DNA from: an uncultured Planctomycetota bacterium
GTDB lineage: Bacteria; Planctomycetota; Planctomycetia; Pirellulales; Thermoguttaceae
NCBI GenBank assembly: GCA_902797455.1
Contig: CADBTE010000237.1
Coordinates: forward strand, 1 to 39,986
Reading direction: 5' to 3'
DNA: 39,986 nucleotides
Positions within the stretch are counted from its first letter, which is position 1. Each line of letters opens with the position of its first letter. Below the pieces are notes generated by a model. The model ran no database searches. It was not told where the DNA came from and saw nothing but the letters and a program-made list of their open reading frames with translations. This document shows, one piece after another, positions 16,610-35,135 of this stretch. The translations under genes and the position numbers were made by a program.

Positions 16610-16662
16610 AGACGCACTCCTTGCATAAAAACGATTGATGGTGAACTTACAAGGGCCTTTGA

Positions 16663-16671
16663 TTATCCACA
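16663..16671 (+). promoter_or_regulatory. Perfect consensus DnaA box (TTATCCACA) upstream of dnaB
   Basis: An exact 9-mer TTATCCACA lies in the dnaB / ABC-ATPase divergent intergenic region, 54 nt upstream of the dnaB ATG. It is a single copy, so chance cannot be excluded. Confidence 0.35.
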
Positions 16672-16732
16672 CCGCCAAACACAGCGCAAGGGCCCCGGCC
16701 AAAAAATTCCCCGAGGAGTCCCTCTTAACCCG

Positions 16733-16760
16733 TTGCCGAGGCGGAAAAAAAGGGAATAAT
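16733..16760 (+). promoter_or_regulatory. Candidate promoter for the ABC ATPase gene
   Basis: TTGCCG (16733-16738), a 16-nt spacer, then AATAAT (16755-16760). AAGGAA Shine-Dalgarno lies about 9 nt before ATG 16800. Confidence 0.3.
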
Positions 16761-16799
16761 TACAACAGAGAAAATTTTCCCACCCAAGGAACCGACCCA

Positions 16800-17603
16800 A
16801 TGGCCGAGGCGATCGTTGATCTTCAATCCGTCACCTTCTCGTACGATGGACAAGCCCCCGCCTTGGAGGATGTCTCGCTGAAAATCGCCCCGGGAGAGTT
16901 CGCCTCGATCGTCGGACCGAACGGGGGGGGAAAGACCACGCTGGTGCGGCTGATGCTCGGGCTGCTTCATCCCCAAAAGGGGACGGTGAAGCTCTTCGGT
17001 CAGCAGCCAGAAAAAACCCGGCTGTTCGTCGGCTATACCCCACAGCTGCTGCGGGTCGACCGTCTCTTCCCCATTACCGTCGGCGACGTCGTCCTCACCG
17101 GCCGGCTCGGCGGCGCGCGCAATAAAGAGGTCTCCTTCGTCGGCCGCCTCTTCTGGCGATACTCCAGGCAGGATCGAACCGAGGCGGCCGCGGCGATGGA
17201 GCAAATGGGGATCGCCGACCTGGCGAACCGAACCTTCGGGTCGCTGTCGGGAGGCCAGCGACAGCGGGTTCTCATTGCCAGGGCGCTGTGCAGCCGCCCC
17301 AAGCTTCTGATCCTTGACGAACCGACCAACAACGTGGATCCCTCCAGTGTCGAGCAGTTCTATCACCTCCTCGAGGAACTGAACCGCACGGTCGCCATTT
17401 TAATCGTCTCGCACGACCTGGGGGTTGTCTCACGCTGCGTCCAGAGCGTTATCTGTGTCAATCAGCGGGTGGTTGTTCACCCGACCAGTGAGTTCGACGG
17501 CCGGGCCATACGCGAGATCTACGGCGGTGATCTGAAGATGATCCGTCACGACCACCGCTGCAGCGAAGGAGGGCACCTCTTTGAGGGGGAACACCTCATT
17601 TAA
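16800..17603 (+). CDS. Metal (Zn/Mn, ZnuC/TroB-type) ABC transporter ATP-binding protein
   Basis: Walker A GPNGGGKTT, signature LSGGQRQRV, Walker B LLILDEPT, VSHDL...VICVN and a His-rich C-terminal tail (IRHDHRCSEGGH), as in ZnuC-type ATPases. Confidence 0.88.
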   Translation: MAEAIVDLQSVTFSYDGQAPALEDVSLKIAPGEFASIVGPNGGGKTTLVRLMLGLLHPQKGTVKLFGQQPEKTRLFVGYTPQLLRVDRLFPITVGDVVLTGRLGGARNKEVSFVGRLFWRYSRQDRTEAAAAMEQMGIADLANRTFGSLSGGQRQRVLIARALCSRPKLLILDEPTNNVDPSSVEQFYHLLEELNRTVAILIVSHDLGVVSRCVQSVICVNQRVVVHPTSEFDGRAIREIYGGDLKMIRHDHRCSEGGHLFEGEHLI

Positions 17604-17635: not shown

Positions 17636-19045
17636 TTAAACAAACGCCTCCTCACCGTACTCGGGCAGGGCGACCTTCGTCTCGGGGGCGATTCCCCTGA
17701 TCTTCTCCGCCAAAGTCTGTGAAGAAGTGATCTCCCCGTGAACCACAAAGGTGGTCTCGGGATGCTTCGGGATCGCGCTGTACCACGCCAAAAGTTCTTT
17801 TTGATCGGCGTGACCTGAGATTCCCCGGACCGAAACCACTTCGGCGCGGACCATATACTGCTGGCCGAGAATTCGAACGTTCTTCTCGCCGCTGACAATC
17901 CTTCGCCCCAATGTTCCCTGCGACTGATACCCCAAGAAGAGGACCATATTGCGCTGATCCCCGATATGGTTGGCGAGGTGGTGTTTGATTCGGCCGGCGT
18001 TGCACATCCCGCTGGAGGCCAAAATCAGCGCGGGCCCGCCGAAGGTGTTCAAGGTGCGAGACTGATCGGGGGTCTCCAAAAGATGGAGGTTTTCGATCGA
18101 TTCTCTGCTGTCGAGCATCTCGAGCGTCTCTTGATCGAAACACTCCTTGTGACGGACAAAGATACGTGTCGCCTCGACCGCCATCGGGGAATCAAGGAAG
18201 ATCGGGATATCTTTCGAAAGGGCGCCGCTTTGCTGAAGTGTCGCCAGTCGATAGAGCATCTCCTGAGCGCGCTCGACGGCAAAGACAGGCATGATCACCT
18301 TTCCGCCGCGGGCGGTTGTTCGCGCGATTGCTTCACGGAGCTGATCGTCAACGCTTTCAATCGGCGCGCTTTCACGGTCGCCATAGGTCGACTCAATCAG
18401 CAGGGTATCGACCGGCCGGCCCGGGTCGAGAAAAAACGCCGGGTCGCGCAGGATCGGGCGATCCGGACGGCCAAGATCGCCGGAGAAGAGAATCCGGCGT
18501 TCATTTCGCTCGCGCGGTTCCCGGTAGGTTACCTCGACGAAGGCGCTTCCCAAGACATGCCCCGCCTCGTGGAAGGCGACGCTCACACGGGGAACAATCT
18601 CTGTTTGGCATTCGTAGTCAACTGGGACAAACATCGGGAGAACTTGCTGAACGTCGGCGTTGGTGTACAGCGCAACGACGGGGCGCCCCAGACGGTTTTC
18701 TTTGCGGTGACGCTTCTGCTTGAACAGCGCGTCTTCCTCTTGGATATGAGCCGAATCGAGCAGGATCAGCTTGGCCAGGTCGCAGGTCGCCGCGGTCGCG
18801 TAGATCTTCCCGCGAAAACCGTCCTTCCAGAATTTCGGAATCAACCCGCAGTGATCCAGATGGGCGTGCGTCAGAAAGATCGCCTCTATTCCCGCGGGAT
18901 CCTCGGGGCACTTGTCCCAGTTGCGCCAGAGGTAATCGCGCTCCTGGGTCATTCCACAGTCAACCAGAAAACGAAAATCCCCGGTCTCGGCGAAGTGCTT
19001 CGAACCGGTGACATTCCCATTACCCCCCAGAAAACGCAATCTCAT
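17636..19045 (-). CDS. MBL-fold beta-CASP family hydrolase (RNase J / CPSF-like nuclease)
   Basis: Metallo-beta-lactamase motif FLTHAHLDHCG, beta-CASP-type spacing with ESTYG and the late GHADQKELLAW His motif. ATG start. Confidence 0.85.
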   Translation of the reverse strand: MRLRFLGGNGNVTGSKHFAETGDFRFLVDCGMTQERDYLWRNWDKCPEDPAGIEAIFLTHAHLDHCGLIPKFWKDGFRGKIYATAATCDLAKLILLDSAHIQEEDALFKQKRHRKENRLGRPVVALYTNADVQQVLPMFVPVDYECQTEIVPRVSVAFHEAGHVLGSAFVEVTYREPRERNERRILFSGDLGRPDRPILRDPAFFLDPGRPVDTLLIESTYGDRESAPIESVDDQLREAIARTTARGGKVIMPVFAVERAQEMLYRLATLQQSGALSKDIPIFLDSPMAVEATRIFVRHKECFDQETLEMLDSRESIENLHLLETPDQSRTLNTFGGPALILASSGMCNAGRIKHHLANHIGDQRNMVLFLGYQSQGTLGRRIVSGEKNVRILGQQYMVRAEVVSVRGISGHADQKELLAWYSAIPKHPETTFVVHGEITSSQTLAEKIRGIAPETKVALPEYGEEAFV

Positions 19046-20672: not shown

Positions 20673-20939
20673 CTAATCTTGCAGCGCCTTGTACTGGCGC
20701 AGAACATCTAAAAAAGAGGCGACATCTTTGCGAGCCGTTTCGGCGTCGACTTCATAACGCGCCGTGAGGCGTTCGACCAGTTCGTCCTCGGTCACTTCGC
20801 TGTGGAGCTGCTCCACCAGGAAGGCCCCGACGGCATTGACCGTGATCATCCCGTTGAAGTCGACCTGCGCCTTTCCAAAGGGGACTAAAATCGTCGTATC
20901 ATCCAGCGTCCGAAGAACAAATTCAGAATTTAGTTTCAT
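20673..20939 (-). CDS. PqqD-family protein (RiPP recognition element-like peptide chaperone)
   Basis: 88 aa: FVLRTLDDTTILVPFGKAQVDFNGMITVNAVGAFLVEQLHSEVTEDELVERLTARYEVDAETARKDVASFLDVLRQYKAL. The size and pattern are typical of PqqD/RRE winged-helix proteins. Confidence 0.85.
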   Translation of the reverse strand: MKLNSEFVLRTLDDTTILVPFGKAQVDFNGMITVNAVGAFLVEQLHSEVTEDELVERLTARYEVDAETARKDVASFLDVLRQYKALQD

Positions 20940-20973
20940 TGTATTATATCAGAGGTTTCACCCTTCAGCGGAA

Positions 20974-21471
20974 TCACCGGAAGATCCCCCTCACCCGGCG
21001 TTTGAGATAATGATAGACTTGTCTGGGAAAACGCAGCGCCATCCATGCCTCGCTGTAGAGGCGGTAAAGCCGGCTGTCGCAATGGATGACCCGCGAGCCG
21101 CGCCGGATCGAGCGAACCACCGCCAAAACCTGCTCACGATCAATCCCCCGCTCCAGCGCTATCTGGTTATCGCCGCAGAGAGTATACCGCTGCCGCGGCC
21201 CGGAGACCCCCACTATTCTATGCAGAACATAGGTTCCGTCCAGACGCCGATAGAGAATGATATCACCTCGGCGGAGCTTTTTCTCCCCTGGGGCCTCTAG
21301 AACGACTGTGTCACGCCCCCCGCGCAGGGTCGGGAGCATACTGCTTCCGGTGGGGGTGATCGAGACGCGCTTACCGGCCGCCAACAGTTCCCCGGCCAAG
21401 GCGAAAAAGGGCTCGGAACCGACCAAAAGCGTCGTCTTTTCACCATCCGGGGGGGGAACGGAATCACTCAT
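20974..21471 (-). CDS. S26-family (SipW/ER/archaeal-type, Ser-His) peptidase lacking a membrane anchor
   Basis: Box B GSSMLPTL, box C RGDIILYRR, box D YVLHRIV (His where LexA/UmuD and SPase I carry Lys) and box E CGDNQIALERGID. No hydrophobic TM stretch at either end. ATG 21471 overlaps the upstream stop as ATGAGTGA. Confidence 0.8.
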   Translation of the reverse strand: MSDSVPPPDGEKTTLLVGSEPFFALAGELLAAGKRVSITPTGSSMLPTLRGGRDTVVLEAPGEKKLRRGDIILYRRLDGTYVLHRIVGVSGPRQRYTLCGDNQIALERGIDREQVLAVVRSIRRGSRVIHCDSRLYRLYSEAWMALRFPRQVYHYLKRRVRGIFR

Positions 21472-22258
21472 CGCGTACCCCCGGGGGCAGCTGTTCGAGG
21501 GGCCGCGCGTCACGCATCGCGGCGTACGCGACTCGGACCGCCCCAGTGGTCGGTGTGCAGCTCAATTGGAAGATCGGGATTGTCTTGAGAAGCCTGACCA
21601 TTCGGTCGAGCGCATCCTCCATCTGCTCGCCGCCGGCGGGACGAAGCGTCTGTGACAAAAAGGGATAGACCGCCTCGGACGGCGTCATGGGATGGATCGT
21701 ATCCTCGATCCCGCGGCGCAGGAAGGCAATCGCCGCCAAAGGAACACGAAGCGGGCGATTCAAGTCACTCTTCCCCGACCAGGGGGTTCCATAGACATAC
21801 CACGCGCCGTCGACCAAACGGATGACCGGTTTGTCATCGTTGAGGATAAAGGCGCGGTCACGGCCAAAGTGGCGGCACCAAAGCTGGGTATGGGTCGACT
21901 TGCCAACACCGCTGTCGGCGGAAAACAGATAGGCCCGCCCGTCACATACCACGGCCGAGGCGTGCAGGCCAATACCGTTGAAGTCGAGAATCGAACGGAT
22001 AAAGTCGATTCCGGTGAGAATATACAGAAGGGAATCGGGGGTCAGATGGGGGTTTTCGCGCAGCTTCCTCTCAAAGAAATCATCGGGGATATCGATCACC
22101 AGATCAACCTTGGGAGGTGGGCTTTGGCTCGGCAGCTCATACGCCCGGGCCTGCTTATACAGACGCCCCCGGCCGGAATCGAACGAGACTACCAGATCGG
22201 CGATTCGGTAATACGTCCGATGACCGGCGCGGGGGTTATCTTGGGGAAGGATCGGCAC
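21464..22258 (-). CDS. HPr kinase C-terminal-domain-like P-loop kinase (HprK-related)
   Basis: LHASAVVCDGRAYLFSADSGVGKSTHTQLW (compare HprK/P G-x-SG-x-GKS), FILNDDKPVIRL (compare HprK ADD motif) and YGTPWSGKS. The P-loop is encoded at about 21890-21916. GTG start 33 nt after the giant-gene stop. Confidence 0.8.
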   Translation of the reverse strand: MPILPQDNPRAGHRTYYRIADLVVSFDSGRGRLYKQARAYELPSQSPPPKVDLVIDIPDDFFERKLRENPHLTPDSLLYILTGIDFIRSILDFNGIGLHASAVVCDGRAYLFSADSGVGKSTHTQLWCRHFGRDRAFILNDDKPVIRLVDGAWYVYGTPWSGKSDLNRPLRVPLAAIAFLRRGIEDTIHPMTPSEAVYPFLSQTLRPAGGEQMEDALDRMVRLLKTIPIFQLSCTPTTGAVRVAYAAMRDARPLEQLPPGVRDE

Positions 22259-22291: not shown

Positions 22292-25200
22292 TCAATCCAT
22301 TACCGGTATATCGTAATCGAGCAGTTCGCTGTCAATTTTCTCTTCGGCAGCGGCATCTTCTTCGAAGTCAAAGAGCCAATCGGTACGATCCGACTCGGCC
22401 GCGAAGGGTACAGCCGCCAAGGCGGCGGGAACCGCGTCGTCGCGAAGAGCGTCGAGCGCCTCGACAATCACCGCGTCGGAGGGAGAACTCTGCGCGGCGG
22501 CCGACGGCCGCTCAAAGGCCGAGACGACGAAGCAGTCGGACTCCAATGCCGAGGAGACAATCGAATTGGGACGGACTGTCCAGCCGAGAAGGTAGGGATC
22601 GAACCCCGCGTCTTTGTAGAAACCACCCGTGCGGTACGAGACCCCTCGAATACCGTCATAGGACCACCCGTAGCCGGCCAGGAAATAGGACAGGTCATAA
22701 TCGCTGATCGTCGTGGCTCCGGGATTGGTATCGACCAGGAGAATTTTGTATTTCCCGACAGGTCTTTGAGCGTAGTACTTGAGGAAGAAGGCCAAATCGG
22801 CATCGTCCACAGCGCCGTCGTCGTTGACATCAAACCGTACGGGGAAGTAGGTGGTTGTGTTCAGCGACTCGGTCACCGTATTGACCCCATTAGACTGATT
22901 GATCGACTGGGAATCTTTTGAAACCAACAAATTGAACGTCTCCGAGTTGGTGAACGCCTGGAAAACCCCGACATTCGCCAGGTCGTCCAGAAAGATGCCG
23001 CCCCCTTCCACCGGCGCCATCTTGACACGGGCCAGCAGCACCTGCTTCCCGGAGGCGACCGTCACCGGCGTGCCGGCGAACCCCGAGACGGTGACCTTGC
23101 CGGCGGTACTGTCGTCGGCCGTCACGGTGAACCCGGTGCCGGCTTCCACGTCGCTGTAGACATAGTAACCCGCGCGGAACGACAGTTCGGCGGAGAATTG
23201 GGTGATCGTACTGGAGGTACTCGGGGCACCCCAGATCTCGACATAGAAGCTCGACCACTCGTCGAGCCAGTCATAGACGAAGTTTTGATCTTTGATCTGA
23301 TCAACGGTCATCGCTGCGGAAGCGACCGTCCCGTTCAGTCCGCGGATCACCACGGTCATCGTCCCTTCCGTATCTTTTTCGTAGGAGGGATCCAGCCGCA
23401 GAACCGTCTTCCCCTTGACGGCGTAGACCGACGGTTCGCCGGTGCCGCGGTCCGCCGCCGAGACCAAAAGGTACGGGGCGGCGAGCAGTTCACCGTCCGT
23501 CCCCTGGAAGTTGACCCCATCGGCGTCGTCACCCGCCAGGGTGTTATAGACAGGAAGATTGAAGCGCGAATCACCGTCTTTGCCGAGCGCCCAATAGAAC
23601 TTGGAGCGTCCCGCGTTGTTCACGGTAAAGACCGCGTCGAGCTTTCCGTCACCGTTGATATCGCCAAGGGTCAGACCGCCGACCTCACCGATTTGGTCGA
23701 TCCCGCCGTTGAGCGTCACGGGGGGGTTGTCGCCGGGGAACCCTTCGTCCGGCCGATGGTTATTCCCCCCCGCTTCTCCAGACCCCGACGTGTTGAGGAC
23801 ATAGGTCACGGTGGAGAAACCCTCACCGGTCTGGAGGACGTACCCAATCGCGGCGTCCAGCGCTCCGGTTCCCTTACTGAGGAAAACGATATCCGTCAGT
23901 CCATCGCCATTGATATCGCCGCAGGCGACACTGACCGGCTGATAGGGATTATAGAGAAAAACGTACTGACCGCGGGGGACCGCCGAGATAGTTTTCCTCA
24001 CGGCGGCATCGACACTGCCGGTGGTATTGTCGAGGACAACGATCGTCGAAGCGGCGTTCCCCGTGCGGCAGACGGTGTACAGAACATCGGCGTACGGATC
24101 GCTCCCCGCGCACAGAGCCCCCACCCACAGCGCCGTGAGCTCGTGGGAGGAGGTGAATTGCGATTCCACACAGCGGTTGGAGACAATCATCGCTCCCACC
24201 TCCTGGAGCGGATCGATCACCGAGAGATAAAGCCCCGATTGCTCACTGCCCTGGGCGGTGTGGTAGAACCCCACCACAATCTGATCGGCCGGACTGGCAT
24301 CGGTCTTCCCGAGAACATCACCCGAGGCGATCAATGTCGTGTAGGCCGTTGAGGGAACCGACTCGAAGGTAACGGTACAGGAGCCCTCACTGACCACCCC
24401 TTCAGGGGTAAAGCGGCCATCCACCCCCTGGTAGAAGATACCGACTTTCCCCTCATAAAGGACCGCCACGTCGATTTTATCGTCTTTCATACCGGCCGTA
24501 CCGGTACCGAAGTAGCCAAAGACAGCGGACGAAGCCGTTCCGTTGAGATTGCCCAGCTGAATCGGCTGAGCGCTTAAATCGGAATCGGCAAAGAGCCAAA
24601 TGCCCGACGCGCCGGCCACCAGAAGATCGAGCGAGCCGTCGCCGTTATAATCCCCTTCCCAGGAAGCGAAGTAATCGGGCTGAGTCACCAGGGACACCGG
24701 GGAAAAGGGGGACTCACCGCCGGTGGCGTTAAAGAAGACATAGTCCGTTCCGGAGACGGCAATCAAATCGGTGGAGGAAACGGAAGCGAAAGCCCCCGAA
24801 GCCATCGCCACAGACCGGGTGGACGAGGAGAAACCGCTGAAGGCGACCGCGGAAGCATCGCCAAACGAACCGGTCCTGGCCGCTTCGTCGAGCGACAGCG
24901 TCAGGGAAACAAGCTTTTTGGTATTGCAGTAGTAAAGATTCTGTCCGGAGGCGACCGCACCGAGCGGTTCGGTCATCGAGATCGCCGTGCCGGCGGTATA
25001 ATTCCATGACTGAACAGCGTACGCGAAGCTGGCCTTGCCGTACGAAACAGAGACATCGTAGGCGTTAAAGCATGTCCGACCGGCGCCCTTATTGACGGTC
25101 ACCAGGAACGAGTGGCCACCCTCGGTGAGGGAACCAACCAGTCCTTCCCCATTGACGGTCCCGTAGGGGGAACCGGTGGTAGCGGTAAAGGAACCCGCCG

Positions 25201-25834
25201 CGCTGCAGGAGAACAGGACAATTCTGTCACAGTCCGAAGTGCTGACACCCGGAACTTTGGCCTGCATGCGAACGGCCGCGCCGCCGTCGATCTGGACGAC
25301 TTCGACCGACCAGGGAAGGAAAACGGTTGCCGAAGGCGCAAAGACCGAAAGCGAGATCGGATCTGAGGTCTTCGTTAAAGAGAACGAACCGTTCGACCAG
25401 GAGTAAAGTGAAAATACAATATTTTGGGTACTGGAGGTATCGGCGACCAAAAGATCGAATTTTCCATCGCCGTTGAAATCCCCCAGCGCCGCTGCGATGT
25501 CGACTTGAGAAAGATTCTTGTCGATGGCGGTCGTTTTCGCCGCGCCGTAGCCCCCCGCCGCGTCTTTGAGGTAGACGGAAACTGTCGAATCGGCCTTATT
25601 GACCGCGATCAGATCGTCGAAGCCGTCATGATTAAGATCGGCGGCGCCGATCAGATCGACATTCTCTTCGAAATCGACAATCGCCGATCCCGATTCGTAG
25701 ACATTACGCTCGGGAAAATTCTCAAAGCCCTGCCAGTCACCCACGGCGAGGAGAATCCGTCCCTCGAGGGGTTCCATTCTCATCGAACGGAATGAATGAC
25801 TGCGAGAGGAACGGGAGACAGAATGTTTCTTCAT
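22292..25834 (-). CDS. Giant surface protein 1 (about 1180 aa): LEPR-XLL-like N-terminus, FG-GAP/VCBS integrin-like repeats, cohesin-like + dockerin-like C-terminal modules
   Basis: ATG 25834 is preceded by AAGGAAG. The N-terminus is MKKHSVSRSSRSHSFRSMRMEPLEGRILLAV. Ca-binding FG-GAP loops are present (DLNHDGFDDLIAV, GDFNGDGKFDLLV, GDYNGDGSLDLLV, GDINGDGLTDIVF, GDINGDGKLDAVF). A cohesin-like block lies at about 23000-23200 and dockerin-like FDVNDDGAVDDADLAFFLKYY at about 22675-22850. Acidic C-tail. Confidence 0.85.
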   Translation of the reverse strand: MKKHSVSRSSRSHSFRSMRMEPLEGRILLAVGDWQGFENFPERNVYESGSAIVDFEENVDLIGAADLNHDGFDDLIAVNKADSTVSVYLKDAAGGYGAAKTTAIDKNLSQVDIAAALGDFNGDGKFDLLVADTSSTQNIVFSLYSWSNGSFSLTKTSDPISLSVFAPSATVFLPWSVEVVQIDGGAAVRMQAKVPGVSTSDCDRIVLFSCSAAGSFTATTGSPYGTVNGEGLVGSLTEGGHSFLVTVNKGAGRTCFNAYDVSVSYGKASFAYAVQSWNYTAGTAISMTEPLGAVASGQNLYYCNTKKLVSLTLSLDEAARTGSFGDASAVAFSGFSSSTRSVAMASGAFASVSSTDLIAVSGTDYVFFNATGGESPFSPVSLVTQPDYFASWEGDYNGDGSLDLLVAGASGIWLFADSDLSAQPIQLGNLNGTASSAVFGYFGTGTAGMKDDKIDVAVLYEGKVGIFYQGVDGRFTPEGVVSEGSCTVTFESVPSTAYTTLIASGDVLGKTDASPADQIVVGFYHTAQGSEQSGLYLSVIDPLQEVGAMIVSNRCVESQFTSSHELTALWVGALCAGSDPYADVLYTVCRTGNAASTIVVLDNTTGSVDAAVRKTISAVPRGQYVFLYNPYQPVSVACGDINGDGLTDIVFLSKGTGALDAAIGYVLQTGEGFSTVTYVLNTSGSGEAGGNNHRPDEGFPGDNPPVTLNGGIDQIGEVGGLTLGDINGDGKLDAVFTVNNAGRSKFYWALGKDGDSRFNLPVYNTLAGDDADGVNFQGTDGELLAAPYLLVSAADRGTGEPSVYAVKGKTVLRLDPSYEKDTEGTMTVVIRGLNGTVASAAMTVDQIKDQNFVYDWLDEWSSFYVEIWGAPSTSSTITQFSAELSFRAGYYVYSDVEAGTGFTVTADDSTAGKVTVSGFAGTPVTVASGKQVLLARVKMAPVEGGGIFLDDLANVGVFQAFTNSETFNLLVSKDSQSINQSNGVNTVTESLNTTTYFPVRFDVNDDGAVDDADLAFFLKYYAQRPVGKYKILLVDTNPGATTISDYDLSYFLAGYGWSYDGIRGVSYRTGGFYKDAGFDPYLLGWTVRPNSIVSSALESDCFVVSAFERPSAAAQSSPSDAVIVEALDALRDDAVPAALAAVPFAAESDRTDWLFDFEEDAAAEEKIDSELLDYDIPVMD

Positions 25835-26029
25835 CGTCAATGGCTTCCTTCGTCAAAGCTTCCTGGAATAATGGGGACTTCCCTGTTTATCGCCCTCATA
25901 GAAGAAATGCACGGCATCTCCCCTAGAGTGTAATGACTTTATGAAATCTTTTCAAGGGATCAGCCCGGGAACGGAAAAAAACACCCCAAAGCGGGAGTGA
26001 GTCCCGGCCGCCCTCGCGGGCGCTTTTTT

Positions 26030-26132: not shown

Positions 26133-29100
26133 CTAGAGAAGATCCTCCTCCAGACCATCCCCGGCAAAGAACCCTTCCTCGTCGCTTTGACTTTCGGAAC
26201 CTTCACCCAAGGCAAAGTCGTACTCGTCATCCGACTCGACGATCTGGCTAAAGGACTGTGCCGCCATGAGTTCGTCGACCGCGGCGCTGTGCCGCGCCTC
26301 CAGCGCCGACTCGTCGTACCGGCGGAGATTGCCGATCGCCAATCCCGAATCGGCCAGCGATTGGGCCAAACGGGTATCGAGGAAATAGACCGAATGATCC
26401 TCCGACGCGGCGGCCGGCCCCACTTCGATCTTCGAAGCGGCCATCGCCTCGCAAAGCGGTGTGTCGACACAGATCGCCGTCATCGAATTGACTGCCCCGG
26501 CGGTCGACCCCCCAGCGTCTCCACCGGTCAGAGTATCGAGAATCGCCCGTGCCGCGGCGATATCCTGCTCGGTCAGTTCCTTGCGCTGACCAACCTCCAC
26601 CCCGTAGTACATCACATCGGCGATATCGTCGGAGTGCCCCTCGGCGTTGAGGTAATCGAAAGTGGTCATCACCGTCATATAGGCGGCACTGGTCGGATCG
26701 AATCCGTAGAAGTGCCCCAGCTCGTGGAGGATCACCGTGTAGAGATCGTACCGCGAAGCGTCGACAGGATCACTGAGCTGCGAATACCAGAGTTTCCCGG
26801 CCGCGTCGTCATCGATGTAGATGATGCCGCTCTTGATCACCCCGTTGACATCGACCTGCGTGACCTGCGCCTGGGCCAGCGTCTCGGAATCGGCAAAGTC
26901 TTTCACCGCCAGCGTCACCGAGACGGACTCATCCAAACCGAGCGCCTCAACCCACGCCTGGTTGGCCGCGTCGTAGACGGTGCCGACCAGAGCGATCTGA
27001 TCGGTGCTGAGCGTCGTCCCGACATAGCGCTGCGTGAAGGTCTCGGGAAGAAGGATCGTGCGATTCCCCGAGACGACATCTTCCTTGGTCGCTCCGTAGA
27101 GACTCAGGAAGTAAAGGAGGTCGGCATCGTCAATCGATCCGTCGCGGTCATAATCGGAACCGACTTTGTAAGAATTGCCGGCAATACCGTGGCCGTACGC
27201 GACGAGGAATTTCGCCAGGTCGGCGTCGGTAATCGCGCCGTCGTCATCGGTATCGTAAGGATTCGCCCACAGCTCGACGGTCTGCTTCAGACCAACGCTC
27301 ACCTCGGTATTTCCCGAGAGGGTATAGAGGTCCGCCGCGGTGAGCTCCCAAGACAGGGCGATCGGATCGGCCGTGGCGCTCCAAGCGACGGTGTCCCCTT
27401 CACCTGACTGCCACGCCACCCGGGCCAGGAGAACCAGTCCCGTGCCCGCGATCCCACCGTCGGCCGCCAAGGCGCTGACGGTAATCAGGCCGTTGTCGGC
27501 ATCGATCGAGTAAAGACCATCGCTGAACATCGAGCCGAACTCGACACTCGCCGCGGTAAAGTACCCCGGGGTGTAGGAGAACTGCGCCGAGGCCCCCAGG
27601 TAGGTCTCCAGCTCAGAGGCCTTAACCCAGATCTCGGTGAAGTGGGACTGCCACTCGTGGAGGTACTCGGTGTTGCTTACCAGGGTACTGTCGACACGGC
27701 TTTCGTCGGTGGCCTGAGCCACCGTACGGAGATAGACGCCATTGTCGGCAATCACCTCGATCCCGCTTAAACCGACCACGCGCTGCGGCACGACCACCCC
27801 CTGATTGAGGCGGATCTGCGTATCGTTGAGCTTGGTATCGAGCGTCTCCCCCCTGGGAACAAGGTTCAAGCCCTCTTTAAAGGGGGTGATATTCTGAGAC
27901 GGATACTGCTTGGTCACCGCGCCGATGGTGATCGAGTGATCGGCCATGCACTTCGTCCCGCTCTGGCTGGTCGCCGCCTTGACGACCACCTTCATACGGC
28001 ACACGAGGTAGGCCTGGGAACCGTCCTTCACGTTAAAACCGCCCGTACTGGAGAGCGAAACATCACGCAGACGCGCTCCCAGGTCGTAGTCTTCCGCGCC
28101 ATTGACGTTGATCTGGCCGTCGTCGTACATGTCGCTGTGCATGCCGAAGATCGGATTAACGCCGATCAATCCAGTCTCATCCTCATCCCAGATATGAATC
28201 GACTCAATGTTCGAGGAGTTGTGATTCAGCTGGAAAGAAACCATCGTCAGTCTGAAGTCTTCCCCACTGAATTTCCCGTTGGTATCACGGAACCAGACCT
28301 CGAGGTAGTACCAGTAGTTATCGTTAACCGCGTCGTAGTTTCCGAGGGTATCGACGTCCGTCGTCTCAAGCTTTTCGTAGTCCGCCGTTCTCCCGTTGAG
28401 GTTCGCCGTCGTCGCCGTATTCGTCCCGTAGAGGATCAGATTCGCCGTGCACTGCTCCTCGTCGGCCAGTTTGACCTGGAACAGATTCGAGGAAACCGAA
28501 TTGGTCCCGTCACTGACGGTGATCTTGGCATAGACCGGGGCGGTATTGAGCGTCGAGGCGTAATCGGCGGTCTTCAGCTCGATACTGGTATTGCCGCTGG
28601 AGTCGGTCACCATTCGATACTGTCCGACAAAGTGGGCGGCGCCATCGTTCCAACTGACGTCGGTCCACTCGGTCGCGTAGGCCAAATCGGCAAGTTTGCT
28701 CACCCCCTGCGAGGTGGAATAGATAGCCGCCGTCGTGTTCTCGGCTATGTAGGCGCCAGTGAAATGGCCGGAGAGCGGGAGCGTCAAAATACCGTCGTAG
28801 GATCCGTCGGCGTAGGCGAAGTGGGTCGTCTGCACGGTGTAGGCGGTGACAAACCGAGGCGCTTCATACCAACCTTCCACGGCCACAGCGGCTGTCGCGG
28901 CATCGGAATCAAGACCGTGAGTGTCGGCGACGGTGAAGTTCACCGCGAGAGAAACGGTTGAACCGATCGCCAGCTTCGGGAAGAGCGCGCGCAGCTTGGC
29001 GATATCGAAGACGACCGTCTTCGAATCGGTCAACGACCAGCAGTCGGCCGGCAGATCTTTGACCGTGCCGCCGTCCTCGTAGGTGATCGAGGAGACCGCC

Positions 29101-32100
29101 GCGGTTTGGGCATAGTCATCGATATCTGGGTCTTCCGCGCCGCTGGTCAGATCGAGCGCAGTCTGCGTACCGGCGGCCAGATCGACCGTTCCGGTGAGCG
29201 TTGTCGAGGCAACCGGGGCGTCGTTCTTCCCGACAACGGTGACCGTCAGGGTCTTGATTCCTTCTTTGACACTCGCGCCGGCGGAGTCTTTCACCAGGAA
29301 GGTGACCGGGATCGCGACGGTATCGTCCTGCGCCAGCTTTAAGAAATCGCTCGTCAGCGCGGCAAGATCGATACTCACCTCACCGGTGGAAGCGACCGAG
29401 ATCGCGCCGGGAGAAATCGTGAACGTATGCCCATAGGCCGTCACACTCGTCGGAACCGAGACATTGGCCACCGACAGCGCATTCCCATCAGGGTCGACCA
29501 CACCGTCGAGAATATTCAGGATATCTTTGTCGGTGTCGTACTTCACCGTCTGGTTGATCAGATTCACGTCGGCGGTATGGTCGTTCGCGCCGTACGGGGC
29601 GTCGTTGACACCGATAACGTTGAAGTCGTAAGCAATCGACTCGGTCACCGCGCCGGCCTTGTCACAAACGACGAACGAAATCGAATCGGCCGCGGTTTGA
29701 CCGGCCGGGAGGTTCGGAACCCTTTCGGCGCGCCCGGCGACGTTATAGCTGCACGAGGTGATCCCGCTGGCGTTTTTGACCAGCGTCAGCGTCGCGCCGG
29801 AGGCGAACGCCTGAGTGAACGTATTGCCCGACCATCCCGCGGTCTGGGCGGTAATCGTTGTCCCTTCGACGGTCACACTCTGGAAGTAGAGGGTAGTATC
29901 GTTCAAGTCGATATCCTCGGCGAACATCGCGGGGGTGATCGACACCGGTGCCGAAGCGGTTGATTCCTCGATATTGGCCGAACCGGTCGGGGCGTCGGCC
30001 TTTTTGGTCGGCGCTTCGTTTTTGCCCAGTACCGTCACGGTCAGTGACCTTTCGCCCTCGGCGACAACCAGTCCCTGATCATCGCTGATGGTAAATTTCA
30101 CCGCAATTTCTGCCGACTGACCAAGCCCAAGCTTCACGAAATCGCCGGTAAGCTTGTCGACATCGACCGAAACCGTCCCATCGGCGGCAACAGTGACCGC
30201 CCCCTCGGAGAGGGTGAACGTGGTTCCGTAGGCGGTGACCGTCGCGGGGACGATCCACGTCGTGCTCAGACTTCGACCTTCGGGATCGACAACGCCGTCG
30301 AAGATATTCAGCGTCGCCGAGCCGGTGTCGTACACCACCGCGCCGGTGGTCAGATCGACCGAGGCGGTATGGTCGGCCGCGCCGTAAGGAGCGTCGTTGA
30401 TACCGGTGATATTGACGGTGATGGGATTGTTCGTCGAGGGGACATCCCAGACGACACCGTCTGAGGTGTAGCCGTCGATCGTATAGTGGTAGGTCACGTG
30501 CAGCTCGGCCCCATCGGCGAGGAAGGAGAGGAACGTCCCGTCGTTGCTGAAGGTAAACATCTTCGACGCGCCGTCGACCGACGCGGCCTCGCTGAGCTGC
30601 TGGATAAACGCCGTGTACCGATCCGCCGTCCAGCCAAGATGATCCTTGATCTGCTCGCCGGTATAAGTTCCGGTCGAATCACTTAAGGCAACCGTATGAA
30701 CCGGAAGCTCGCCGAGCGTCTTGAAACGCACATCGGTAACAGTCGCGGTCGCCTTGTCGGGATCGATGAAGGTGTTTTCCGACAGATCCTTCGAAATGAG
30801 CGCGACATCTTCGGTGATCGCGGGCAGATCGATCGCGGCGGCCTCGACACCACTTTTGTCTTGAATGGTGAGATTGATCGTGTGATCCTGAACGTCGGCC
30901 TCACCGTCGAGATTCTCAGAGGTGAAGGCAAGAACATAGTCACCCGGAGGCAGAATCGGCGAGGGCCCCGTCACCGCGTCTTGTTTCACAAAGAGCGTCA
31001 CCTTGCCGCCGGTTGCCTCCATCTTGAAATACTGCGCCAGGTCAGTATCATCATTGGCCTTCGTGACAGTAAACTCGTACGCCTGGCGCCCGCTGCCGGG
31101 AAGCGCGTCACTGAAGAAACCGAGCCGCTCGGTCGCCGGAATCCACCCCTCGACCGCGGGAGACTTATTGGTGATCTTCAAGGTTGTCGGATTTTCGGGA
31201 TCCATCTCAAGCGGATCGAACCGGCCGACCACCTCGACGGCGGCGTCGGCGGTGTCCGAGGTCAGCCGGCCGTCGGAAACTTGGTAGGTGAAACCGACGA
31301 GGCGGGTGTCGCCTTTCGCCAGATCCCACTTCAGGGCATCGCCGGCGGCGGTGTAGATGAGGACCTGTTCCCCACCGACGATCGAGACGGTCAGATACCC
31401 GACATACTGATCGTTGTCATACAGATCGATCACCTGAGGATTGGTCTGCGTCGCGGTGACCGCGACATCGTTGATTTTGACCAGCGTGACCGGGTCCTTG
31501 AAATCAACATCGTTCGAATTGGCCCGCCAGTCGATCACGACAGAATCGCCGGCGTCGACCGAAACGGAGATATCCTGAGCGGTCGGCGCCTGGTTTGTCC
31601 CGGTGATCGTCACCTGGATATCTTCGATAGTCGTTCCCCCCTTGCCGTCACTGACTTGGAAGCTGTAAGCCAGCGTAGCGGTTACCGTCTCGGGGAGCGC
31701 CTTGAAAATCTCCGAGCCGGGCGTGAATACATACTCTTGCCGCGCGGCGTCCCAAGTCAGCCAGGTCGAGAAATCGGCCCCATCGACAATGGCCGCGATC
31801 CCCTCCGGGGCGTTCCCGCTGAAGACCACATCTTCGCCGGACGGACAGCTGTTAAGCGTATAGACCAGCTCGGAGGCCGGCGTATCGGCGTCGGTCACTT
31901 TCGAAGAGGCCGAAGCGGCCGTATCGACGTCGCTTAAGGCGATATCGACCGTGCCATGCGCCACCGGAGCGTCGTTGACACCGGTAATCATCACTGTCAC
32001 GTCGCCGCCGCGAAGCGTACCGGAAATCGCCTCGCCGTCGATCACCAAGTTAGTCAGCGAATAGCCGAACGACAGAGTCAGCGAGTCTCCCTCGGCGAGA

Positions 32101-35036
32101 TACTGCAGTATCTCGCTGGCGGCGGTATCGAGGCGGAAGAGGAAGTTGCCAGCGCTGTCGATCGTCGCGCACGAGAGAAGATGCGCTTTTTCGACATCGG
32201 TCAGGTCCGCGGCTCCCGCCCCCGCGACATCGTCTAACCTCAGCGTGGTCGAGAAATCGTACGAATCGACCGTCGCCACCTCGCCGCCGCTTTTTTGAGC
32301 GGTCACACTAACGATTTTAGTGGTCAGATCCACCGCCGCCTGATAGCCGGTCTCGGGAGTGTAAACCTGATCCTCGGTCAGTGTCCCCCCTTCGATCACC
32401 GCCGGGGTCACGGTAATCGTGTAACCGACGATCGACAGGGTGAAGGTCCTCTGTCCGGCATCATCAGCGTGGGCATCGGTGTCGGTATTGGCGTAATCGA
32501 AGGTCACCGTATAGTCGCCGTACCACTCGGCCGGAATCGTCGCCAGGGCGTCACGATTGACCTGGAGCTCGACCCAGCCGTCACGGCCGTAAACAGGATC
32601 GGCAAAGCGAAGAAGACTAGCCGCGTCGAGCGTATGCTCATCGTTTTTAATCTCCTTGACACAGAAGACATACGTCTGGCCGGCGTCACTGTGGAAGGTG
32701 ACCTTCCCATCCAGCGTCTTCCAGCCGGTCTCGGTCCCGAGGGCATTCACCTCTTGGTCCGGGATATCCACAAGCTGGAGCTTGTCGAAGGCGCCGACGT
32801 AGGTATAGCTGACCGCGGCACTGTTGGACATAGCACCGTGATTGTCGGCCATCTGATACTCAAGCCCGCCAAGCTCGATAGCTTCGGTCCCCCCCGCGGG
32901 TGTCGTCCAGCGGAGCTGCTCGCTGTAACCGTCGCTCAGCGTGTAGAGAAGCGCTTTGTTCGCGGTATCGAGCGTGTAGGTTCCGTAACCGGCGACCTCG
33001 ACCGAACTTTTGCCGGGGGCGAACTCTCCGGCCTCCCAGTCAATCACATAGGTCGTTCCGCCAATCGTCACCGCCGCCAGCGCGACGGTATCACTGTAGT
33101 CTATATCTTCGCCTCCGCAGGGAACAGCGAGCACGATCGCAGCGGCCGAGTCGGGGACGGCGGTATAGGTCTGGTCGATCGCCTCGGCGACAGGCGCTTG
33201 ATTCGTACCGGTGACAGTCACCGCGACAGTCTCTTCGGTTGTCGCGCCAAGCTTGTCGGTCACCGTGCAGGTATAGGTCAGGATGAACTTCGCCCCGATC
33301 GGAAGCTGTTTGAGGAAATCAACACCCTCAGGCACCTCGAAAACATACTCTCCCGAGGCACTGTCAAAAGTCAGCCACGAAGAAAAATCAGTCCCCACCG
33401 GGACGATAGCCTCGATCCCTTCCGGCGCGTCTTGGAAGGTCGGCGCGCCGACCGAATTCACCGCCGAGGAGAGGACATCACCGCGGTCGCGGTCGGTCGT
33501 GTTTGTTTTTTCGGCGGCGGAAACCGTGGTATCGATCAGCGCGATTTGAACACTGGCGTGGGCTTCCGGTGCGTCATTGACACCGAGAACGTTGAAATCC
33601 CAAGCGGCGGACTCCCCGCCGATATTGGTCATCGAGAACCAGACCGGATCGATGTCTCCCTCGGGAAGATTGACGGCTTTGTCCCACCGGCCGTTCATCC
33701 GATAGGTCATCGAGGTAATGCGGCCCTCGCCGTCGAGAACCAGGTCAACTATCGCGCCGGACGGCAGAACGATCGTGTCGGACGTCCCGTCCCAATCGGT
33801 CACGGAGTTTCCCTCGTAGATCGTCAGGGAGGTGATCGCGGCCCCGTCGCCAAAACTCCAAGCCGGGTCGTAGGTCGTCTCGTTCTTGGCGGTTTCTCGG
33901 GCGTTCCCGGCGATATACCGGACAAAGACGTCGGTCGGCGGCATCTCGTTGCCGGCGTTATCGGTCGCGGTGACCGTCATCGGGTAGTCGCCGTTGTTCA
34001 GTTCACCGGTGCGGTCATCGCGGAAGAAATCCTCAAACGAGACCGGCTGACCTTCAACAAAGACGCCGACGATATTGGTGATCCGTTGTCCTTCCGGTGT
34101 CGTACCGCCGTCTTCGAGCACCGCGTCATAGACGTCGTCGCCGACTTTCACCGTGGCAATGCCAACCCCCGTATCATCGATGACGGGGATATTGAATTCA
34201 GCCGGATCGTTGACCACCATCGGATTGTCCGGATCGGTCCACGCCGGATCGATCTCGGGGGCATCGCTGTCGTACTCAAGCTTGACGCTGGAAGTATCAC
34301 GGATGCCGAGCTTGATGAGCGACAGGTCATCACTGGTCATCACGCCATCCATATTGACGTCATAGACCGTGCTGTAGACATTGCTCCACTGGGAAATATC
34401 GACATCCTCGCCGAACATATGGCGATAGATATCGATCGAGGCGGGATTCCTCCCGCCGGAGAAATAGGCGTTCGTGTACGAGACGAATTTGAAGGTATCC
34501 TGGATCTCGAAATCGTCGATGACCCCATTGTGGTTGGCGCTTCCGGGGGTAAAGACCGAGCAAGTGAAGGCGCCGGTGAGTCCCTCATCCTTCCCCGAGA
34601 TGAAGAGCTTATATCCCTCTTCATTCGGCGTCACGCGAAGGATAACGAACGAGCTGTTCGTCCCACCGGCATCGGTCAGCATCCCGCTTTTGATGATCTG
34701 CCACCCGGTGACCTGGTCGTCGAGGGTGATCGCCGCCGGATCGAGCACGGACGGCTCGCCGGCTTTTCCGCTGACGACAACACCAACGAGAAGATCGTCC
34801 GTCCCCGCGGTCTGGCCGAAGGTCAGCTTCACTTCCGAGGGATTTCCGACATCCGAGACATAGCCGTACTCCACGTTGGCTTCCGGGGTATCGACAATAT
34901 CCCACCCATTGGGTGTCGCGGTGAGCAAATTCCGATCTTCCAGCGGCTCCATCTGCAATCCGCGCTCGCGAATCGGCCTCATCCGACCTTGCAGACGAGA
35001 GAAAATCCGTTCCTGAAGATACTTTTTCACACTCAT
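26133..35036 (-). CDS. Giant surface protein 2 (about 2967 aa): LEPR-XLL-like N-terminus, many VCBS/cadherin-like Ig repeats, cohesin-like and dockerin-like modules, C-terminal matrixin-like HExxH region
   Basis: ATG 35036 gives MSVKKYLQERIFSRLQGRMRPIRERGLQMEPLEDRNLLTATP. Repeat junction motifs recur: GVNDAP (three times), GINDAP, GTNQAP (twice), GKNEAP, GKNDAP and GWYEAP. Dockerin-like loops are YDVNMDGVMTSDDL (about 34300-34365) and DTDDDGAITDADLAKF + DYDRDGSIDDADLLYF (about 27090-27265). HELGH lies at 26712-26726. Acidic C-tail. Confidence 0.9.
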   Translation of the reverse strand: MSVKKYLQERIFSRLQGRMRPIRERGLQMEPLEDRNLLTATPNGWDIVDTPEANVEYGYVSDVGNPSEVKLTFGQTAGTDDLLVGVVVSGKAGEPSVLDPAAITLDDQVTGWQIIKSGMLTDAGGTNSSFVILRVTPNEEGYKLFISGKDEGLTGAFTCSVFTPGSANHNGVIDDFEIQDTFKFVSYTNAYFSGGRNPASIDIYRHMFGEDVDISQWSNVYSTVYDVNMDGVMTSDDLSLIKLGIRDTSSVKLEYDSDAPEIDPAWTDPDNPMVVNDPAEFNIPVIDDTGVGIATVKVGDDVYDAVLEDGGTTPEGQRITNIVGVFVEGQPVSFEDFFRDDRTGELNNGDYPMTVTATDNAGNEMPPTDVFVRYIAGNARETAKNETTYDPAWSFGDGAAITSLTIYEGNSVTDWDGTSDTIVLPSGAIVDLVLDGEGRITSMTYRMNGRWDKAVNLPEGDIDPVWFSMTNIGGESAAWDFNVLGVNDAPEAHASVQIALIDTTVSAAEKTNTTDRDRGDVLSSAVNSVGAPTFQDAPEGIEAIVPVGTDFSSWLTFDSASGEYVFEVPEGVDFLKQLPIGAKFILTYTCTVTDKLGATTEETVAVTVTGTNQAPVAEAIDQTYTAVPDSAAAIVLAVPCGGEDIDYSDTVALAAVTIGGTTYVIDWEAGEFAPGKSSVEVAGYGTYTLDTANKALLYTLSDGYSEQLRWTTPAGGTEAIELGGLEYQMADNHGAMSNSAAVSYTYVGAFDKLQLVDIPDQEVNALGTETGWKTLDGKVTFHSDAGQTYVFCVKEIKNDEHTLDAASLLRFADPVYGRDGWVELQVNRDALATIPAEWYGDYTVTFDYANTDTDAHADDAGQRTFTLSIVGYTITVTPAVIEGGTLTEDQVYTPETGYQAAVDLTTKIVSVTAQKSGGEVATVDSYDFSTTLRLDDVAGAGAADLTDVEKAHLLSCATIDSAGNFLFRLDTAASEILQYLAEGDSLTLSFGYSLTNLVIDGEAISGTLRGGDVTVMITGVNDAPVAHGTVDIALSDVDTAASASSKVTDADTPASELVYTLNSCPSGEDVVFSGNAPEGIAAIVDGADFSTWLTWDAARQEYVFTPGSEIFKALPETVTATLAYSFQVSDGKGGTTIEDIQVTITGTNQAPTAQDISVSVDAGDSVVIDWRANSNDVDFKDPVTLVKINDVAVTATQTNPQVIDLYDNDQYVGYLTVSIVGGEQVLIYTAAGDALKWDLAKGDTRLVGFTYQVSDGRLTSDTADAAVEVVGRFDPLEMDPENPTTLKITNKSPAVEGWIPATERLGFFSDALPGSGRQAYEFTVTKANDDTDLAQYFKMEATGGKVTLFVKQDAVTGPSPILPPGDYVLAFTSENLDGEADVQDHTINLTIQDKSGVEAAAIDLPAITEDVALISKDLSENTFIDPDKATATVTDVRFKTLGELPVHTVALSDSTGTYTGEQIKDHLGWTADRYTAFIQQLSEAASVDGASKMFTFSNDGTFLSFLADGAELHVTYHYTIDGYTSDGVVWDVPSTNNPITVNITGINDAPYGAADHTASVDLTTGAVVYDTGSATLNIFDGVVDPEGRSLSTTWIVPATVTAYGTTFTLSEGAVTVAADGTVSVDVDKLTGDFVKLGLGQSAEIAVKFTISDDQGLVVAEGERSLTVTVLGKNEAPTKKADAPTGSANIEESTASAPVSITPAMFAEDIDLNDTTLYFQSVTVEGTTITAQTAGWSGNTFTQAFASGATLTLVKNASGITSCSYNVAGRAERVPNLPAGQTAADSISFVVCDKAGAVTESIAYDFNVIGVNDAPYGANDHTADVNLINQTVKYDTDKDILNILDGVVDPDGNALSVANVSVPTSVTAYGHTFTISPGAISVASTGEVSIDLAALTSDFLKLAQDDTVAIPVTFLVKDSAGASVKEGIKTLTVTVVGKNDAPVASTTLTGTVDLAAGTQTALDLTSGAEDPDIDDYAQTAAVSSITYEDGGTVKDLPADCWSLTDSKTVVFDIAKLRALFPKLAIGSTVSLAVNFTVADTHGLDSDAATAAVAVEGWYEAPRFVTAYTVQTTHFAYADGSYDGILTLPLSGHFTGAYIAENTTAAIYSTSQGVSKLADLAYATEWTDVSWNDGAAHFVGQYRMVTDSSGNTSIELKTADYASTLNTAPVYAKITVSDGTNSVSSNLFQVKLADEEQCTANLILYGTNTATTANLNGRTADYEKLETTDVDTLGNYDAVNDNYWYYLEVWFRDTNGKFSGEDFRLTMVSFQLNHNSSNIESIHIWDEDETGLIGVNPIFGMHSDMYDDGQINVNGAEDYDLGARLRDVSLSSTGGFNVKDGSQAYLVCRMKVVVKAATSQSGTKCMADHSITIGAVTKQYPSQNITPFKEGLNLVPRGETLDTKLNDTQIRLNQGVVVPQRVVGLSGIEVIADNGVYLRTVAQATDESRVDSTLVSNTEYLHEWQSHFTEIWVKASELETYLGASAQFSYTPGYFTAASVEFGSMFSDGLYSIDADNGLITVSALAADGGIAGTGLVLLARVAWQSGEGDTVAWSATADPIALSWELTAADLYTLSGNTEVSVGLKQTVELWANPYDTDDDGAITDADLAKFLVAYGHGIAGNSYKVGSDYDRDGSIDDADLLYFLSLYGATKEDVVSGNRTILLPETFTQRYVGTTLSTDQIALVGTVYDAANQAWVEALGLDESVSVTLAVKDFADSETLAQAQVTQVDVNGVIKSGIIYIDDDAAGKLWYSQLSDPVDASRYDLYTVILHELGHFYGFDPTSAAYMTVMTTFDYLNAEGHSDDIADVMYYGVEVGQRKELTEQDIAAARAILDTLTGGDAGGSTAGAVNSMTAICVDTPLCEAMAASKIEVGPAAASEDHSVYFLDTRLAQSLADSGLAIGNLRRYDESALEARHSAAVDELMAAQSFSQIVESDDEYDFALGEGSESQSDEEGFFAGDGLEEDLL
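28856..30404 (-). repeat. Three B-type repeats of about 125 aa in giant gene 2
   Basis: GINDAPYGAADHTASVDL...VLGKNEAP, GVNDAPYGANDHTADVNL...VVGKNDAP, and a third copy ending VEGWYEAP. Shared strings include N[IL][FL]DGVVDP[ED]G and VTAYG-x-TF[TS][LI]S-x-GA[VI][ST]VA. Confidence 0.6.
30405..31982 (-). repeat. Intragenic super-module copy 2 (about 526 aa) in giant gene 2
   Basis: Runs from GVNDAPVAHGTVDIAL to just before GINDAPYGA. It has the same four-block order as copy 1 (EDIDYSDTVAL / NDVDFKDPVTL; GDYTVTFDYANTD / GDYVLAFTSENLD; FLFRLDTAASEILQYLAEGDSLTL / FTFSNDGTFLSFLADGAELHV). Confidence 0.65.
31983..33584 (-). repeat. Intragenic super-module copy 1 (about 534 aa, four Ig-like blocks) in giant gene 2
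   Basis: Runs from GVNDAPEAHASVQIAL to just before the next GVNDAP. It is block-by-block collinear with copy 2, e.g. APEGIEAIVPVGTDFSSWLTFDSASGEYVF versus APEGIAAIVDGADFSTWLTWDAARQEYVF, and both contain TVTGTNQAP/TITGTNQAP about 125 aa in. Confidence 0.65.
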
Positions 35037-35106
35037 GCTATCGATCCTTAACGCAAAGGGATGGAATACCCGGTGAGCCCAAACAACGGACAACGGCGCG
35101 AGGTCT

Positions 35107-35135
35107 ATTTTACCTATACTGCGCGCCCGGCGCAA
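35107..35135 (-). promoter_or_regulatory. Candidate promoter for giant gene 2
   Basis: The minus strand reads TTGCGC (35135-35130), a 17-nt spacer, then TAAAAT (35112-35107), about 70 nt upstream of ATG 35036. Confidence 0.3.

Follow-up and report, generated by a model that had tools for sequence, protein, structure and literature searches.

Three adjacent genes of a gut planctomycete as the probable enzymatic core of a pathway related to linear polyphosphorylated peptides

We analysed a 39,986-nt stretch of DNA from a planctomycete of the family Thermoguttaceae (contig CADBTE010000237.1; this whole stretch is referred to as the window), focusing on three packed minus-strand genes that encode an HprK-like kinase, a soluble S26 peptidase and a PqqD-type protein (the trio, in the order kinase-S26-PqqD or K-S-B). 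The trio probably forms the enzymatic core of a pathway for peptides made on ribosomes and modified after translation (RiPPs) that resembles the Linear Polyphosphorylated Peptide (LPP) pathway of Popov et al. (Nat Commun 2026, PMC13381572). It is not an unknown kind of system; it probably represents, in reduced form, a subfamily that is sister to the LPP one. A preliminary description, made from the sequence alone, had proposed a triad for recognition, phosphorylation and cleavage, and experiments have demonstrated a pathway with just this logic in LPP clusters (PMC13381572). The same description regarded both substrate and chemistry as open, which goes too far: homology predicts that a RiPP recognition element (RRE) guides the (poly)phosphorylation of an early core Ser in a peptide with a YxxP leader, and that the leader is then cut off.

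The cluster lppA-K-B-S-D-N of Paenibacillus alginolyticus DSM5050 encodes the precursor LppA, the HprK-like kinase LppK, the RRE LppB, the peptidase LppS, which resembles type I signal peptidases (SpI), the MsbA-like exporter LppD and the NTP-transferase LppN, and LPP clusters are often hosted by capsule loci (PMC13381572). LppB binds the YxxP leader and LppK puts several phosphates on core Ser3, while leader removal by LppS (catalytic S29/H68/D93) requires LppB and favours the phosphorylated precursor (PMC13381572). For the trio, our data establish gene order, motifs, folds, homology to LppS and LppB, conserved synteny and purifying selection; we infer the enzyme activities, the order of the steps and the nature of the substrate by homology. 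The PqqD-type RRE would bind the [Y]xxP motif of a ribosomal precursor peptide as an added beta-strand, and the HprK-like kinase would phosphorylate, with ATP, a Ser at the start of the core, probably more than once. The soluble S26 peptidase of the endoplasmic reticulum (ER) type (Ser44/His84/Glu107) would use its N-terminal helix to dock on the complex of RRE and leader, and would then remove the leader. Genes for the precursor, for the exporter and for any additional tailoring enzyme (NTP-transferase) would lie off this contig.

The three proteins and their LPP counterparts

The peptidase aligned by BLASTP with LppS of P. alginolyticus (33% identity over 125 aa, E 3e-15), with S44, H84 and E107 opposite LppS S29, H68 and D93, and was closer to SCH01704.1 (39% identity, E 3e-27), a member of cluster 9 of the published sequence similarity network (SSN). 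Its motifs GSSMLPTL, GDIILY, LHRIV and GDNQ are present, and S44, H84-R85, G100-D101 and E107 are invariant across 24 homologues. Hidden Markov models (HMMs) of S26 peptidases matched below their thresholds (PF10502, 0.0033 and 17.8 bits against 22.9; TIGR02228, 7.7e-8 and 32.3 bits against 51.85). Despite this, the family call is settled, since the structure matches signal peptidases: a fold search with the AlphaFold2 model (predicted local distance difference test score, pLDDT, 88.5) placed SpsB, SEC11A/C and LepB at the top and LexA/UmuD next. The family profile likewise had SEC11C/A as its best match, with E107 opposite the catalytic Asp. The maximum 19-residue hydropathy was 1.34, so that the protein has no N-terminal membrane segment and would therefore be cytoplasmic. 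The protein is an anchor-less, SpI-like S26 peptidase of the ER/archaeal type, with a predicted Ser44/His84/Glu107 triad. It shares its fold and the Ser-His boxes GSSMxP, LHRIV and GDN with the SipW/Sec11/archaeal type I signal peptidases (S26B) but differs from them in lacking an anchor, in having Glu as its acid, in scoring below the curated thresholds and in its expected need for an RRE partner. A housekeeping type I signal peptidase was rejected on account of the missing membrane anchor and the TIGR02228 and PF10502 scores.

The PqqD protein was the only one of the three to pass its curated threshold (PF05402, 5.7e-17). When aligned with LppB (9x8z_B), it conserves N34 (LppB N33), Y61-E62 (Y60-E61), D71 (D70) and F75 (F74). 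In LppB these residues, the Asn and the Asp among them, hold the YxxP leader at its Pro kink and its Tyr (PMC13381572). The window RRE keeps this Asn and this Asp, and binding of a YxxP leader is accordingly predicted. The Gly/Gln signature of the Trp-binding RREs of paeninodin clusters is absent. Identity to the cluster-9 RRE SCH01659.1 was 38%.

With regard to the kinase, the motifs ADSGVGKST, LNDDKP and GTPWSGKS are present. PF07475 (HprK_C) did not match, nor did any other family of the Pfam set scanned, and NCBIfam matches were weak only (ScmC, 2e-6 and 27.4 bits against a cut-off of 125; HprK_rel_A, 0.035). PDB searches with the single sequence and with a profile returned noise or generic P-loop matches. 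The family call is nonetheless settled, because HprK/P (2qmh, 1kkm) and PEPCK were the best PDB matches of the AlphaFold2 model (pLDDT 91.3) in Foldseek; the model confirms a predicted P-loop kinase of the HprK/PEPCK fold. At least 1192 homologues were found, almost all of them precomputed as Pfam PF27840 'ScmC', a broad Pfam domain that is also precomputed on a homologue 92% identical to the window kinase. The P-loop G119-K-S-T, N140-D-D, G157-T-P-x-S-G and H99 are invariant in the homologue alignment. We liken the window kinase to LppK through the HprK/P fold and the intact P-loop.

The three family calls of the preliminary description therefore hold, PqqD by its Pfam model and the other two through structure models and homologues, although of the HMM matches it had proposed as a check only PF05402 reached its threshold. 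Its account of the layout was also confirmed from the open reading frames (ORFs) and the sequence. The kinase and peptidase genes are coupled by a stop/start overlap, and gaps of 34, 33 and 7 nt follow the peptidase gene, separate the kinase gene from an upstream 1182-aa gene, and separate the PqqD gene from a convergent 468-aa gene, respectively. The last of these encodes an HExxH-like secreted protein; upstream, in the same orientation, are the 1182-aa FG-GAP protein and then a 3000-aa cadherin-like protein.

As in P. alginolyticus, then, an HprK-like kinase, a discrete PqqD-type RRE of the leader-binding type and a soluble SpI-like peptidase homologous to LppS stand side by side. Several points weigh against placing the trio with LPP. 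As judged by pairwise comparison with cluster-9 members and LppS, it appears closest to the uncharacterised cluster 9, not to the characterised cluster 1, and would form a sister subfamily. Cluster 9 was left unanalysed, with its RRE classed as 'other' and no LPP precursor listed (PMC13381572, Supplementary Data 1). LPPs have been called restricted to Bacillota (PMC13381572), whereas the host here belongs to the Planctomycetota. The third catalytic residue is Glu instead of Asp and is invariant in the subfamily, and the gene order is K-S-B. The activity of the subfamily is predicted from sequence and fold. The trio's missing precursor, exporter and NTP-transferase also count against it, although for the precursor the absence is weak evidence, because the contig covers just 41 kb of a fragmented metagenome-assembled genome (MAG) and only about one in four of the well-flanked relatives carries a precursor that can be recognised within 10 kb.

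The window makes up almost the whole of the 41,254-bp MAG contig JAFOLT010000300.1 (GCA_017421235.1), and the names of homologues place it in Thermoguttaceae (Planctomycetota). Family HMM scans revealed no lasso cyclase, radical-SAM enzyme, ABC_membrane exporter or NTP_transf_5 protein anywhere in it, in agreement with the earlier statement that the usual core enzymes and a precursor ORF are absent. No leader-like ORF was detected in the window with two leader HMMs (to E = 200), two regular expressions and a listing of intergenic ORFs; all HMM or regular-expression matches sit within larger genes, in other frames. In particular, the leader HMM and regular expressions found no LPP-type precursor with a YxxP...Px9Fx[T/A] leader in the window, and one may lie elsewhere in the genome. 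The FG-GAP protein has an FERPSA close to its C-terminus, which we regard as a random hit of a loose pattern. Two further candidates were rejected: a 403-aa ORF as NTP-transferase (no Pfam match, no similarity to the transferase of the related locus L089) and an ATP-binding cassette (ABC) ATPase as LppD-type exporter, since it has no ABC_membrane domain (Table 1).

Related modules in other genomes

Loci with relatives of the peptidase were searched with a pattern from a 10-sequence S26 alignment, using one genome per species. This gave 457 loci (at least 457 species), mostly from gut Clostridia and a few from Thermoguttaceae, and gene order was analysed in 80 of them. A module of kinase, PqqD, S26 and ABC exporter recurs, at times followed by a protein of ~400 aa, and Pfam identified the partners as an MsbA-like ABC transporter and NTP_transf_5. 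Partners were counted in those 42 loci in which the peptidase gene is flanked by at least 3 kb of sequence in either direction. PqqD was found near this gene in 37 of the 42, the kinase in 28, the MsbA-like exporter in 26 and the NTP-transferase (NTP_transf_5) in 13, and a recognisable precursor lay within 10 kb in 10. Wzz, CpsB, CapD, LCP, sortase, SLH and VanZ proteins were frequent neighbours, and the loci often lie within capsule regions. The trio's relatives thus resemble LPP clusters in their MsbA-like exporter, their NTP_transf_5 protein and their cell-surface or capsule setting. Gene order was K-B-S in nearly all relatives, in contrast to K-S-B in the window. The preliminary description had raised the case of homologous trios always lying beside a lasso cyclase or a radical-SAM enzyme; no lasso cyclase was present in the homologous loci sampled, and a radical-SAM enzyme occurred in a minor subtype only.

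Many modules are adjoined by short ORFs that have strong ribosome-binding sites and encode a lasso-like leader; one example reads MKKFEMPEIEVEVFAVEDVITTS, followed by a short acidic core. A profile search returned at least 610 leader-bearing precursor proteins of 32-64 aa, with the YxxP-type leader consensus MKKFExPEIEVxxFxVEDVITTS. Written as [FY]ExPEIEVxxFxVEDVITTS, the leader of the trio's relatives differs from that of LPP, YxxPxVLxHQxIxFETxxS.

In L082, a tandem array of three LppA-like precursor genes is found ~9-10 kb away from the gene for the peptidase, and precursors can therefore be distant from the enzymes. Three Ruminococcus loci (L015, L021, L028) have a kinase-less version, with PqqD, S26 and NTP_transf_5 directly after groES-groEL. 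The minor subtype (L002-L004 and L076) adds the radical-SAM enzyme and has a Cys-rich precursor of 81-84 aa with the same MKVYEKPALTLL leader; it looks like a hybrid of an LPP-like set and a ranthipeptide-like enzyme.

Within Thermoguttaceae, the module was found in several arrangements (Table 1). The term 'orphan' used in the preliminary description is apt for the 41-kb contig but not for these relatives, in which the enzymes occur with an exporter, with an NTP-transferase and, in one lineage, with a precursor. Regular expressions, leader HMMs and intergenic ORFs yielded a convincing precursor among the Thermoguttaceae loci only in L086-88, and the LppD-like exporter and LppN-like NTP-transferase that the window lacks occur in L001, L086-88 and L089. 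Genes for AP_endonuc_2 and an O-antigen-ligase-like Wzy_C protein lie near the module both in the window and, differently arranged, in L089; this neighbourhood is therefore an old one in the lineage, and its genes have been reshuffled. A rough neighbour-joining tree of the kinase (without bootstrap) shows the Thermoguttaceae as one clade nested among Clostridial sequences, a topology compatible with a single acquisition. The trio is under purifying selection: comparison of the window with L006 gave ratios of nonsynonymous to synonymous substitution rates (dN/dS) of 0.17, 0.23 and 0.19 for kinase, peptidase and PqqD protein, respectively, at a dS of ~0.33 between the two genomes. The values for genes nearby were similar.

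Competing explanations and the adjacent surface proteins

It is possible, though in our view unlikely, that the trio acts on the adjacent giant FG-GAP and cadherin-like surface proteins, e.g., by recognising and processing a terminal segment, and not on a small peptide. The two giant genes and the trio are co-oriented, and the 33-nt gap suggests that all five form one operon; the arrangement is kept in L006, and a giant surface protein adjoins the module in L089 and in Eubacterium callanderi (L074) too. Adjacent SLH proteins of Clostridia have C-terminal tails identical to the C-termini of small-precursor cores. However, the giants have no YxxP leader and share the N-terminal motif MEPLExRxLL instead, and they are predicted to be exported, while the trio enzymes have no membrane or signal segments. 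Moreover, the peptides of the LPP precedent and those of the at least 610 relatives are 30-60 aa long, and module neighbourhoods elsewhere vary widely (groESL, aconitase, rpoD).

Several sequence features of these surface proteins are recorded here in their own right. The N-terminal motif of the two giants reads …MEPLEGRILLAV / …MEPLEDRNLLTA; their C-terminal tails are acidic (…LLDYDIPVMD and …GDGLEEDLL), and both proteins are conserved in L006. [LT]P[LIMWF]G or LPDDE[LF] is the ending of many precursor cores. The extreme Clostridial SLH tails QLPFLPGV, NQLPLG and PNATPWG are identical to the variable precursor core C-termini, and GGTILPDDEF matches GGTVLPDDEF of P0289 (core ending G(T/I)LPDDEF). 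Given such identities, mature phosphopeptides could serve as soluble mimics of the tail motif or compete with it, or the tails could be recognition targets of this machinery too. That the products of the subfamily are functionally tied to cell-surface proteins is a thought that we would put forward only with considerable reserve.

We consider it rather improbable that the trio is an accessory module of a lasso or other RiPP cluster located elsewhere, with the kinase tailoring as in paeninodin and the PqqD protein serving as lasso B1. The best NCBIfam matches of the PqqD protein were indeed lasso PqqD chaperones, all below threshold, and TbiB1 was its best PDB sequence match; HprK-like kinases do tailor paeninodin-type lasso peptides. 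In addition, lasso genes adjoin about one-third of the SpI genes compiled by Popov et al. (PMC13381572). Paeninodin-type clusters (PadeK, B1, B2, C) also have in common with LPP-like modules an RRE-guided HprK-like kinase acting on a Ser of a precursor with a YxxP/WxxP leader, as well as an optional NTP-transferase and ABC exporter. The trio differs in having no macrolactam cyclase and no cysteine protease B2. Its leader would be cut by a serine S26 peptidase, which already provides for leader removal, and its RRE has the Tyr-binding Asn/Asp rather than the Trp-binding Gly/Gln signature. Neither an Asn-synthase-like cyclase nor a B2 protease was found in the window, where the sole Transglut_core protein is 19 kb off, among HEAT-repeat and housekeeping genes, and neither was seen in the homologous loci sampled. 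Membership in a lasso cluster was therefore rejected, its core enzymes being missing from the window.

We likewise give little credence to the idea that the trio is a decaying, non-functional remnant of a horizontally acquired LPP-like cluster that has lost its precursor, exporter and transferase. The absence of the A, D and N genes from the window and the rearranged gene order would fit such a history. Yet all three frames are intact, the catalytic and binding residues are all conserved, and the dN/dS values match those of the neighbours between the two genomes; as only 10 of the 42 well-flanked relatives show a precursor recognisably within 10 kb, the lack of one here is nothing out of the ordinary.

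Lastly, it is highly improbable that the trio belongs to Haft's HPr-rel-A system, a link that the preliminary description had drawn, or to the SynChlorMet (Scm) radical-SAM cassette: the weak NCBIfam matches (ScmC, ScmD, HprK_rel_A/PqqD_rel_X), the Pfam name of the kinase family and the radical-SAM enzyme and Cys-rich precursor of the minor subtype point that way, but membership was rejected, the scores staying far below the curated equivalog cut-offs (TIGR04352, 13.2 bits against 200; TIGR04353, 16.1 against 35; ScmD, 17.4 against 100; ScmC as given above), and the window has no radical-SAM/SPASM gene. In both systems (SynChlorMet with ScmC/ScmD and ScmE/F), a P-loop protein related to HprK is paired with a small PqqD-like one, as it is in the trio, which differs from them in its S26 peptidase and in having no radical-SAM enzyme and no second HprK-related protein.

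Other features of the window and significance

Three further regions of the window are noted. A beta-CASP ribonuclease of the metallo-beta-lactamase fold scored 358 bits with the NCBIfam model of the type VII CRISPR protein Cas14 (cut-off 800) and 284 bits with aCPSF1; it is probably an ordinary beta-CASP RNase and not Cas14. A plus-strand ORF of 631 aa has no family match, and the gene caller of the source contig places a ribosomal protein S1 gene on the opposite strand there. A Y-family polymerase gene (IMS/UmuC-like, DUF4113) has no adjacent gene for a UmuD-type S24 peptidase.

Table 1 Coordinates and arrangement of features in the window and in related loci (K, kinase; S, S26 peptidase; B, PqqD-type protein)
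Sequence	Position	Strand	Feature	Remarks
Window	21464-22258	minus	Kinase-like gene	264 aa, GTG start; LppK-like; from ORF listing
Window	20974-21471	minus	S26-like peptidase gene	165 aa from ATG; LppS-like; from ORF listing
Window	20673-20939	minus	PqqD-fold gene	88 aa; LppB-like discrete RRE; from ORF listing
Window	21464-21471	minus	ATGAGTGA stop/start overlap	couples kinase and peptidase genes; read from sequence
Window	20940-20973		Gap between peptidase and PqqD genes	
Window	22292-25840	minus	FG-GAP protein gene	
Window	26133-35135	minus	Cadherin-like protein gene	
Window	35526-38712		AP_endonuc_2 and Wzy_C genes	AP_endonuc_2 63% identical to that of L089
Window	38757-39968		403-aa ORF	rejected as NTP-transferase
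Window	17636-19045	minus	Beta-CASP ribonuclease gene	
Window	16635-17603		ABC ATPase gene	rejected as LppD-type exporter
Window	5966-7300	minus	Y-family polymerase gene	
Window	3745-5700	plus	631-aa ORF	
Window	3823-5700	minus	Ribosomal protein S1 gene	618 aa
Window	1189-2469		Transglut_core protein gene	
L006			Same giant genes, then K-S-B	peptidase 86% identical to that of the window; sister genome
L001, L018			ABC-K-B-S	
L086-88			ABC, NTP_transf_5, K-B-S and precursor	precursor of 52 aa (…EEYTAPVCAVLSFQVEEDVTQSYS…)
L089			NTP_transf_5-K-B-S	kinase 57% identical; neighbours, as for the window trio: giant cadherin/dockerin protein, AP_endonuc_2, Wzy_C
L089	12866-16714		AP_endonuc_2 and Wzy_C genes	
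L082	19247-20349		Tandem LppA-like precursor genes	
L002-L004	5892-8199		Module subtype with radical-SAM enzyme	
L044	7624-7755 and 7988-8887		Tail/core match	
L078	798-917 and 1155-2306		Tail/core match	
L026	333-464		Tail/core match	
L010	79-588		Tail/core match	

If the assignment to an LPP-like pathway is correct, an LPP-type kinase/RRE/S26 core under purifying selection reaches the Planctomycetota, beyond the Bacilli in which LPP was described. The much larger, uncharacterised sister clade in gut Clostridia, which spans at least 457 species and has at least 610 short precursors, a leader of its own and a Ser/His/Glu peptidase, would broaden the spectrum of phosphorylated linear RiPPs known from gut microbiomes, and supplies many precursor/enzyme sets for probing the roles of LPP-type peptides. 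In the planctomycete, the trio is apparently co-transcribed with the two giant adhesin-like surface proteins and might, though this seems unlikely, act on them or on peptides mimicking them; if true, LPP-like systems would take part in organising the cell surface.

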